From the sequence record OR846269.1: DNA of 1,161 nt. The stretch is one strand, 5' to 3'. Positions 1 through 1,161 of the stretch are shown in pieces. The notes under the pieces were generated by a model. It was not told where the DNA came from, searched no databases, and worked only from the letters and a program-made list of their open reading frames with translations. Position 1 is the first letter of the stretch. Each line of letters opens with the position of its first letter. This DNA comes from a phage. Made by a program: the position numbers and the translations under genes.

Positions 1-42
1 GAACACCACAGTACGATACTCAGGATGGATATTGGGCTTCAT
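1..42 (-). CDS. ykgM: 50S ribosomal protein L31 type B (zinc-independent paralog), 5' end only; gene continues beyond the left edge of the window
   Basis: Reverse-complement of 1..45 translates to M-M-K-P-N-I-H-P-E-Y-R-T-V-V-F. From memory, MKPNIHPEYRTVVF is the N-terminus of the enterobacterial L31 paralog YkgM/RpmE2. Start placed at the second ATG (complement of 42..40); the ATG at 45..43 is an in-frame alternative. An AGGT Shine-Dalgarno-like motif lies a few nt upstream on the minus strand (complement of about 51..54). Only 14 codons are visible, so identity rests on a short but distinctive match. Confidence 0.8.
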   Translation of the reverse strand, partial: MKPNIHPEYRTVVF

Positions 43-53
43 CATTTTTACCT

Positions 54-71
54 GTTATGTTATAACATAAC
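54..71. promoter_or_regulatory. Putative Zur (zinc uptake regulator) operator: perfect 18-bp palindrome GTTATGTTATAACATAAC in the ykgM promoter region
   Basis: Read directly: 54..71 is its own reverse complement. It is AT-rich, has a TGTTATnnATAACA-like core consistent with Fur-family/Zur boxes, and sits 12-30 bp upstream of the ykgM start on the minus strand. ykgM-type L31 paralogs are established Zur targets. Confidence 0.75.
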
Positions 72-213
72 CACAAAGATACATGCTCATCCGGATCATT
101 TCAACACCCAATCCCTGTGACCATTAGTGGTATGTGGAATTTCCTCAACGGGGAAGTCTGGCATTGTTAACAGCCATTGGCGACGCTCCCATAAACGCCT
201 GGATGAGTGATTG

Positions 214-235
214 GTAAGCGTACATCCTGAACCGT
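214..235 (+). repeat. Probable left terminal inverted repeat (IRL) of the IS66-family element; exact inner boundary not determinable from this window
   Basis: Begins GTAAGCGTACATCC.., consistent with the GTAA-initiated termini of the IS66 family. The right end is outside the window, so the repeat cannot be confirmed by pairing and its length is a guess. Confidence 0.45.
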
Positions 236-305
236 CTGGTCAGAATCTGACGAATTAGACAAAGTGGTGTCCACCAAATAAGTAGTGGGAACCAAAGTAT
301 CAGAT

Positions 306-686
306 ATGCAGAAAAATGTGACTCCCGGCAGGCGAAAAGGCTGCCCTAATTATCCTCCCGAATTTAAACAGCAGCTCGTTGCTGCCTCCTGTGAACCCGG
401 GATATCCATCTCAAAACTTGCTCTTGAAAATGGCATTAACGCCAATCTGTTGTTCAAATGGCGACAACAATGGCGCGAGGGAAAGCTGCTATTACCTTCT
501 TCAGAGAGCCCCCAGCTACTTCCTGTGACTCTCGATGCAGCTGCCGAACAGCCAGAATCGCTCGCAGAGGACCCGGAAACCCTCAGTATCAGCTGTGAGG
601 TAACGTTCCGGCACGGGACGCTCCGCTTCAATGGCAATGTCAGCGAAAAGCTCCTGACTCTGCTGATACAGGAACTGAAGCGATGA
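306..686 (+). CDS. tnpA: IS66-family accessory protein TnpA (OrfA), small helix-turn-helix protein
   Basis: ORF-track ORF 285..686. I place the start at the first ATG (306, giving MQKNVTPGRRKGCPNYPPEFKQQLVAASCEPGISISKLALENGINANLLFKWRQQW.., 126 aa); the track's GTG at 285 is an alternative. The ISISKLALENGINANLLFKW segment looks like a helix-turn-helix. Position and size fit IS66 OrfA. The TGA stop at 684..686 overlaps the tnpB ATG. Confidence 0.85.
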   Translation: MQKNVTPGRRKGCPNYPPEFKQQLVAASCEPGISISKLALENGINANLLFKWRQQWREGKLLLPSSESPQLLPVTLDAAAEQPESLAEDPETLSISCEVTFRHGTLRFNGNVSEKLLTLLIQELKR

Positions 687-1030
687 TCCCGTTACCTTCC
701 GGGACCAAAATTTGGCTGGTTGCCGGTATCACCGATATGAGAAATGGCTTCAACGGCCTGGCTGCGAAAGTACAAACGGCGCTGAAAGACGATCCCATGT
801 CCGGCCATGTTTTCATTTTCCGGGGCCGCAGCGGCAGTCAGGTTAAACTGCTGTGGTCCACCGGTGACGGACTGTGCCTCCTGACCAAACGGCTGGAGCG
901 TGGGCGCTTCGCCTGGCCGTCAGCCCGTGATGGCAAAGTGTTCCTTACGCAGGCGCAGCTGGCGATGCTGCTGGAAGGTATCGACTGGCGACAGCCTAAG
1001 CGGCTGCTGACCTCCCTGACCATGCTGTAA
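683..1030 (+). CDS. tnpB: IS66-family accessory protein TnpB (OrfB), 115 aa
   Basis: ORF-track ORF 683..1030. The translation MIPLPSGTKIWLVAGITDMRNGFNGLAAKV..FIFRGRSGSQVKLLWSTGDGLCLLTKRLERGRFAWP.. matches my memory of the conserved IS66 Orf2 family. The ATG overlaps the tnpA stop (ATGA), implying translational coupling. Stop TAA at 1028..1030. Confidence 0.9.
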   Translation: MIPLPSGTKIWLVAGITDMRNGFNGLAAKVQTALKDDPMSGHVFIFRGRSGSQVKLLWSTGDGLCLLTKRLERGRFAWPSARDGKVFLTQAQLAMLLEGIDWRQPKRLLTSLTML

Positions 1031-1056
1031 ATCTCTTTATCCTGGTTGTCACAGAA

Positions 1057-1080
1057 TAAGCCCGGTAAAATACGGGCTTA
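1057..1080 (+). other. Predicted RNA hairpin in the tnpB-tnpC spacer (8-bp stem TAAGCCCG/CGGGCTTA, 8-nt loop) whose 3' arm ends in the A of the tnpC start codon
   Basis: Read directly: 1057..1064 TAAGCCCG is the exact reverse complement of 1073..1080 CGGGCTTA; loop 1065..1072 GTAAAATA. No T-tract follows on the plus strand. Confidence 0.5.
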
Positions 1081-1161
1081 TGAACGACATCTCTTCTGAC
1101 GACATCTTCCTGCTGAAACAGCGCCTGGCCGAACAGGAAGCGCTGATCCACGCCCTGCAGG
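1080..1161 (+). CDS. tnpC: IS66-family transposase TnpC (OrfC), N-terminal 27 codons only; continues beyond the window
   Basis: ATG at 1080..1082 opens a frame that runs to the window edge with no stop: MNDISSDDIFLLKQRLAEQEALIHALQ. This is a leucine-rich, coiled-coil-like N-terminus typical of IS66 TnpC. It sits 49 bp downstream of the tnpB stop, in the expected third position. It is absent from the ORF track because it has no stop within the window. Confidence 0.85.
   Translation, partial: MNDISSDDIFLLKQRLAEQEALIHALQ

Follow-up and report, generated by a model that had tools for sequence, protein, structure and literature searches.

An ISEc8 insertion between ykgR and the zinc-regulated ykgMO operon marks typical Escherichia coli O157:H7

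The IS66 family of insertion sequences groups multi-ORF elements that are flanked by an 8-bp direct repeat, such as ISPpa5a and ISPpa7, both captured in Paracoccus, and IS679, and ISEc8 shares these properties. The terminal inverted repeats of family members are imperfect and span approximately 20-35 bp, and the elements measure 2.4-2.8 kb (PMC3281130, Table 2); the 8-bp direct repeat has been reported for those members that were functionally captured (PMC3281130). ISEc8 is short for a member of this family and belongs to an enterobacterial clade. The element is abundant in E. coli O157:H7, with nine copies each in strains Sakai and FRIK804, eight of which are at shared sites (PMC7430833).

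One of these copies adjoins ykgM, which encodes a paralog of ribosomal protein L31 (L31p) and which is repressed approximately 560-fold by Zur in E. coli K-12, as determined experimentally (PMC4219657). The ykgMO (L31p/L36p) operon of K-12 has the same YkgM protein, the same Zur box and the same gene order (ykgO-ykgM-ykgR) as that of O157:H7, whereas a 2450-bp insertion, a single nucleotide polymorphism (C74 of the window) and a frameshifted ykgR are features of O157:H7. The closest described counterpart of the locus is found in strain Sakai, where ISEc8 occupies the same locus and coordinates (345358..347799) with the same length of 2442 bp, the same tnpA-tnpB-tnpC order, an 8-bp target-site duplication (TSD) and termini starting with GTAAGCG. 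The insertion is thus already known through its annotation in the Sakai reference record; a full-text literature search returned no paper mentioning both ISEc8 and ykgM, but the genome annotation does record the insertion. Based on the comparisons described below, ISEc8 almost certainly transposed into the ykgR-ykgM spacer of an ancestor of typical O157:H7, left the predicted promoter, operator and coding sequence of ykgMO unchanged, and has been inherited vertically as a lineage marker.

Origin of the window and structure of the element

The window, i.e. the whole stretch of 1161 bp that was analysed, is 100% identical to positions 345145-346305 of the chromosome of E. coli O157:H7 EDL933 (NZ_CP008957.1), and many other O157:H7 chromosomes show the same complete identity. 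In the RefSeq annotation of EDL933, the left edge of the window is occupied by ykgM (type B L31), which is on the minus strand; next come three plus-strand genes, namely tnpA, tnpB and one described as 'IS66-like element ISEc8 family transposase'. The features of the window are compiled in Table 1.

Table 1. Features of the window, with coordinates counted from its first base (strand given as a point where none applies).
Feature	Position	Strand	Basis or remark
ykgM 5' end (type B cysteine-free ribosomal protein L31)	1..42	-	RefSeq annotation; first 14 codons in window
Zur box, predicted operator of the ykgMO promoter	53..72	.	pattern match 19/20
Predicted sigma-70 promoter of ykgMO	76..104	-	consensus match only
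Left copy of 8-bp target-site duplication AGTGATTG	206..213	.	repeated after IS right end
ISEc8 (IS66 family), left 948 bp of complete 2442-bp element	214..1161	+	continues to EDL933 347799
Left terminal inverted repeat (IRL) of ISEc8, GTAAGCGTACATCCTGAACCGT	214..235	+	pairs with right end
tnpA (IS66 accessory protein, HTH, 126 aa)	306..686	+	annotation, Pfam HTH_Tnp_1, NCBIfam IS66 TnpA
tnpB (IS66 accessory protein, 115 aa)	683..1030	+	Pfam TnpB_IS66, NCBIfam IS66_TnpB
9-bp stem-loop ATAAGCCCG / loop GTAAAATA / CGGGCTTAT	1056..1081	+	inverted repeat, RNA fold
tnpC 5' end (DDE transposase, 512 aa in full)	1080..1161	+	annotation and domains; first 27 codons in window

The start codon of ykgM is located at 42..40 on the minus strand, and bases 42..1 translate to MKPNIHPEYRTVVF. 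An earlier note on this DNA, made from its letters, had proposed that an L31 paralog is encoded at the left edge, and this assignment was borne out: YkgM matches the Pfam Ribosomal_L31 family and scores 122.9 bits against the NCBIfam model 'type B 50S ribosomal protein L31' (cutoff 86). Its translation contains no cysteine, so that the L31 fold comes without the CxxC zinc motif, as in type B (C-) L31 proteins, and the same protein accession (WP_000803998.1) is common to EDL933 and K-12 KLY. Two adjacent in-frame ATG codons are present at the 5' end of the gene, of which PGAP uses the one at 42..40 (87 aa) and the Sakai record the one at 45..43 (88 aa, MMKPN...); the coding span of 1..45 in the earlier note is explained by this upstream ATG, the start in the Sakai record.

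The Sakai RefSeq record describes a repeat_region at 345358..347799 as 'ISEc8 Family: IS66', whose start corresponds to position 214 of the window and whose length is 2442 bp. The name ISEc8 is used here as given by the Sakai annotation and by that of PGAP ('ISEc8 family' transposase). The copies of Sakai and EDL933 differ by a single SNP, at window position 443 in tnpA, which is C in the window and in EDL933 and A in Sakai; the window therefore represents the EDL933-type allele. The end of the element lies 171 bp from the ykgM ATG (42 to 214), in agreement with the distance of about 170 bp estimated before.

From position 214 the sequence reads GTAAGCGTACA..., which is the left inverted repeat of ISEc8. 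The terminal repeats are 22 nt long and start with GTAAGCG, and no inverted repeat in the region is longer. When IRL (GTAAGCGTACATCC...) is compared with the reverse complement of the right repeat, IRR (GTAAGCGTACAGCG...), all of the first 11 bases match, as do 17 of the 22 bases overall (77% complementary). The termini of IS66-family elements typically read GTAA, and the imperfect terminal inverted repeats found here begin with 5'-GTAA. The octamer AGTGATTG, which the earlier note had singled out at 206..213 as the left half of a possible duplication, recurs directly after the right end of the element (positions 8656-8663 of EDL933 locus L001) and forms an 8-bp TSD.

The genes tnpA, tnpB and tnpC are all intact ORFs on the plus strand and are transcribed away from ykgM, which is on the minus strand, as had been claimed. 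The IS66 affiliation of the element, likewise claimed before, is upheld by the matches of all three ORFs to IS66 models, and the Sakai annotation makes it specific to ISEc8. TnpB is of the IS66 Orf2 type (Pfam TnpB_IS66, 1.2e-38; NF033819, 120 bits with a cutoff of 50) and is encoded, together with the accessory gene tnpA, upstream of tnpC. TnpC is an IS66-type DDE transposase, which carries the Pfam domain DDE_Tnp_IS66 (2.1e-106) as well as the zf-IS66, LZ_Tnp_IS66 and IS66_C domains, and which scores 459 bits with the NCBIfam model transpos_IS66 (cutoff 180). All the features of the IS66 family that were looked for, namely the transposase, the accessory genes, the TSD and the terminal repeats, are thus present. 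The stop codon of tnpA overlaps the start codon of tnpB in an ATGA at 683-686, and tnpC follows after a gap of 49 nt; a stop/start overlap of the type ATGA is a classic arrangement for translational coupling.

A scan of the window against Rfam at E<=1 gave one candidate, isrJ, inside tnpB on the opposite strand, which was rejected as a chance match (20.7 bits with a gathering threshold of 37; E=0.41); there was no other Rfam match in the window at this threshold.

The empty site and the nature of the junction

The genome of the O157:H16 strain Santai, which lacks an IS at this locus, was used as the empty-site reference for alignment with EDL933. Both genomes are collinear through base 213 of the window and diverge from 214, and what comes after base 213 in Santai resumes in EDL933 2450 bp later, the difference being made up of the 2442-bp element and the second copy of AGTGATTG. 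A single copy of AGTGATTG is present in the empty sites of Santai, of K-12 KLY and of the O55:H7 strain CB9615, the latter being 100% identical to the window over positions 1-213 before running straight into the sequence of the right flank. The boundary placed by the earlier note at 214 is thus exact, as identity with the uninterrupted loci ends directly after 213, and the proposed alignment with uninterrupted loci, in this case Santai, CB9615 and K-12, shows that the sequence from 214 onward is not native to the locus.

When the left and right flanks are joined after removal of one TSD copy, the exact contiguous ykgR-ykgM spacer of Santai and CB9615 is obtained, and the order of the genes on both sides of the element is unchanged compared with these two strains. 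The upstream neighbour of ykgM is ykgR, a gene for a small membrane protein, which is co-directional with ykgM and whose stop codon is 192 bp from the insertion point. The event is therefore a simple insertion by which nothing was deleted or replaced, and which pushed ykgR 2450 bp further from ykgM. This contradicts the statement of the earlier note that the element had taken the place of the original upstream or divergent sequence: the reconstruction of the empty site is exact, and ykgR is not divergent.

An IS boundary may also be generated by an IS-mediated rearrangement, such as a deletion, an inversion or the junction of an island, in which case the native sequence upstream of ykgM would have been lost or replaced by other DNA. 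Adjacent deletions are often IS-mediated, EDL933 has approximately 12 places that match the window and that are possible recombination partners, and the next gene, ykgR, is a pseudogene in this strain. Such an origin is nevertheless highly improbable: the 8-bp TSD is perfect at both ends of the element, the flanks rejoin exactly to the empty-site sequence, the right flank is syntenic, with the gene order of Santai and CB9615, and the ykgR frameshift results from the loss of a single T in a T5 run that is unrelated to the junction.

Simple transposition of ISEc8 almost certainly proceeded as follows. A complete, apparently functional ISEc8 (2442 bp, tnpA-tnpB-tnpC) entered the ykgR-ykgM spacer of an ancestor of typical O157:H7, and a staggered cut followed by repair, typical of DDE transposases, duplicated the 8-bp target AGTGATTG. 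The displacement of ykgR and of everything beyond it is the sole structural consequence. With its intact inverted repeats, its 8-bp TSD and a known empty site, the locus provides a clean textbook example of an IS66-family insertion.

The lesion in ykgR is located outside the window, approximately 240 bp from the right end of the element (L001 8856-8956, corresponding to EDL933 348000-348100), and the gene is intact in CB9615 and Santai. The frameshift is an event independent of the IS junction.

The ykgMO promoter and its predicted control by Zur

The presence of a Zur box within the first 213 bp, proposed in the earlier note, was confirmed at positions 53-72. This sequence (TGTTATGTTATAACATAACC) matches the structure-based E. 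coli Zur pattern TGWNAYRWTATAWYRTNWCA (Gilston et al., PMC4219657) at 19 of its 20 positions, with a chance expectation of 0.01 for such a match in the window, and includes an 18-bp perfect palindrome at 54-71. The predicted ykgMO promoter consists of a -35 box TTGAAA (104..99) and a -10 box TATCTT (81..76), separated by a 17-nt spacer; it is the sole sigma-70-like site that a promoter scan detected in the window, and the same site is present in the uninterrupted locus. The Zur box is situated directly downstream of the predicted -10 box.

The window is identical to K-12 over positions 1-73, a stretch that covers the start codon, the Zur box and everything in between. The coding start and operator of ykgM are thus intact, as had been asserted, and so is the predicted promoter. 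Two base differences are found further upstream: C74, which is a T in K-12 and Santai and which is located 2 nt downstream of the predicted -10 box, between this box and the Zur box, and T145, which is a G in Santai and K-12. As both C74 and T145 are also found in O55:H7 CB9615, they are older than the IS insertion.

The regulation of ykgMO is predicted to be unaffected by the element. This expectation follows from the position of the IS end, 171 bp from the ykgM start and approximately 110 bp upstream of the predicted -35 box, from the orientation of the IS genes, which point away from ykgM, from the lack of an outward-reading promoter-like site in the left end of the element in the promoter scan of the window, and from the unchanged operator downstream of the -10 box. 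It also draws on the description of ykgM as an expressed gene of EDL933 that is treated as part of zinc homeostasis, as stated in PMC7911385 and as suggested by the title of Lim et al. 2011 cited there. Zinc-dependent repression of ykgMO by Zur should accordingly operate as in K-12.

The opposite possibility, that the insertion alters the expression of ykgMO, could take the form of a block to read-through from ykgR, of a loss of influence of an upstream element or of DNA topology, or of outward transcription from the left end of the IS, and would imply a modified zinc-starvation ribosomal switch in typical O157:H7. A search of the uninterrupted ykgR-ykgM spacer with a simple terminator pattern, which gives a weak negative, detected no intrinsic terminator between the two genes, so that some read-through from ykgR to the ykgM promoter is conceivable in the empty locus; the short distance between the IS and the -35 box, and the wide occurrence of the insertion within one pathogenic lineage, point in the same direction. 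An effect of this kind is unlikely, however, as the insertion touched neither the predicted core promoter nor the Zur operator, with identity to K-12 through position 73, and as the Zur box downstream of the -10 box would also block transcripts initiated further upstream. No promoter-like site in the left end of the element points outward, the reported expression of ykgM in EDL933 and its treatment as a zinc-homeostasis gene (PMC7911385) also speak against such an effect, and the presence of the insertion throughout a clonal lineage is accounted for by descent alone. We give little chance to a block of ykgR read-through by the IS, or to any other regulatory effect. A subtle rewiring of ykgMO in typical O157:H7, by insulation from ykgR read-through or through local topology, is quite improbable; if it did occur, the lineage would have a different threshold for the L31/L31p switch. 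The preferred reading remains that of an insertion without consequence for ykgMO: the adjoining Zur-controlled L31 paralog is of physiological interest, and its sequence gives no hint of altered control.

Distribution of the insertion and of related elements

A 200-bp probe centred on the junction was found, at a coverage of at least 80%, in 295 of the 5426 complete E. coli genomes, and the corresponding empty-site probe was covered in 4752 of them. Among the matches listed, the junction-bearing genomes are O157:H7 or unserotyped. The empty site, together with an identical flank, is present in the O55:H7 strains CB9615, RM12579, DEC5A/D/E, USDA5905 and TB182A, in O145:H28, in the sorbitol-fermenting O157 strain 493/89, in LSU-61 and in PV15-279. 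O157:H7 emerged stepwise, with LSU-61 as one of the intermediates; strain 493/89 has pSFO157, the plasmid of the sorbitol-fermenting branch, and PV15-279 harbours the plasmid pO157_2, which is found in G5101 too (PMC7175801). The empty site in all these strains indicates that the insertion marks the typical O157:H7 lineage. Most simply, ISEc8 inserted once, on the branch that gave rise to typical O157:H7, and was inherited vertically thereafter. The earlier note assigned the event to a known class and suggested that it could mark a strain-specific rearrangement point; the annotation of the locus in Sakai bears out the former, and the insertion is specific to a lineage. Its presence or absence can conveniently be scored to tell typical O157:H7 apart from O55:H7, O145:H28, sorbitol-fermenting O157 and intermediates such as LSU-61.

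Misassembly classically arises at IS copies, and a chimeric join at a repeated IS could produce a false boundary at 214. The recovery of the same junction in 295 independently assembled complete genomes, and the matching TSD at the other end of the element, make such an assembly artefact extremely improbable.

In strain F3113, isolated from beef and labelled O157:H7, the site is empty and the flank 100% identical (NZ_CP038374.1, 1116754-1116953), and the insertion is therefore not universal under the O157:H7 label. Either F3113 branches early or is atypical, or the IS was lost from it in a rare event.

Close relatives of ISEc8, with 94-100% identity in TnpB, occur in many Enterobacterales. Genes similar to the ISEc8 tnpB (70-100% aa identity) were also encountered on contigs assigned to Corynebacterium, Streptococcus sanguinis, Chryseobacterium, Vagococcus and Neobacillus (loci L011, L013, L046, L050, L058 and L066), some of which are very short. 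For these occurrences outside the Enterobacterales, contamination with Enterobacterales DNA is a likelier explanation than real transfer.

The start of tnpC is associated with a hairpin in which bases 1056-1064 pair with 1073-1081, the 3' arm taking in the first two bases, A and T, of the tnpC start codon. Compared with shuffled sequence, its RNA fold has a z of -3.57, and in a set of 25 distinct ISEc8-like elements, all from other Enterobacterales, 96% of the stem cells are paired, with 2 compensatory pairs. As a lead, the hairpin may act as a clade-specific translational brake that would occlude the start codon of the transposase and limit its translation. A start-codon hairpin general to the IS66 family was considered and rejected, as at 67-75% TnpB identity neither the pairing of the ATG nor the folding energy was better than in shuffled sequence. 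In these distant IS66 relatives, a hairpin whose loop is GTAAAC is often present ahead of the ATG.
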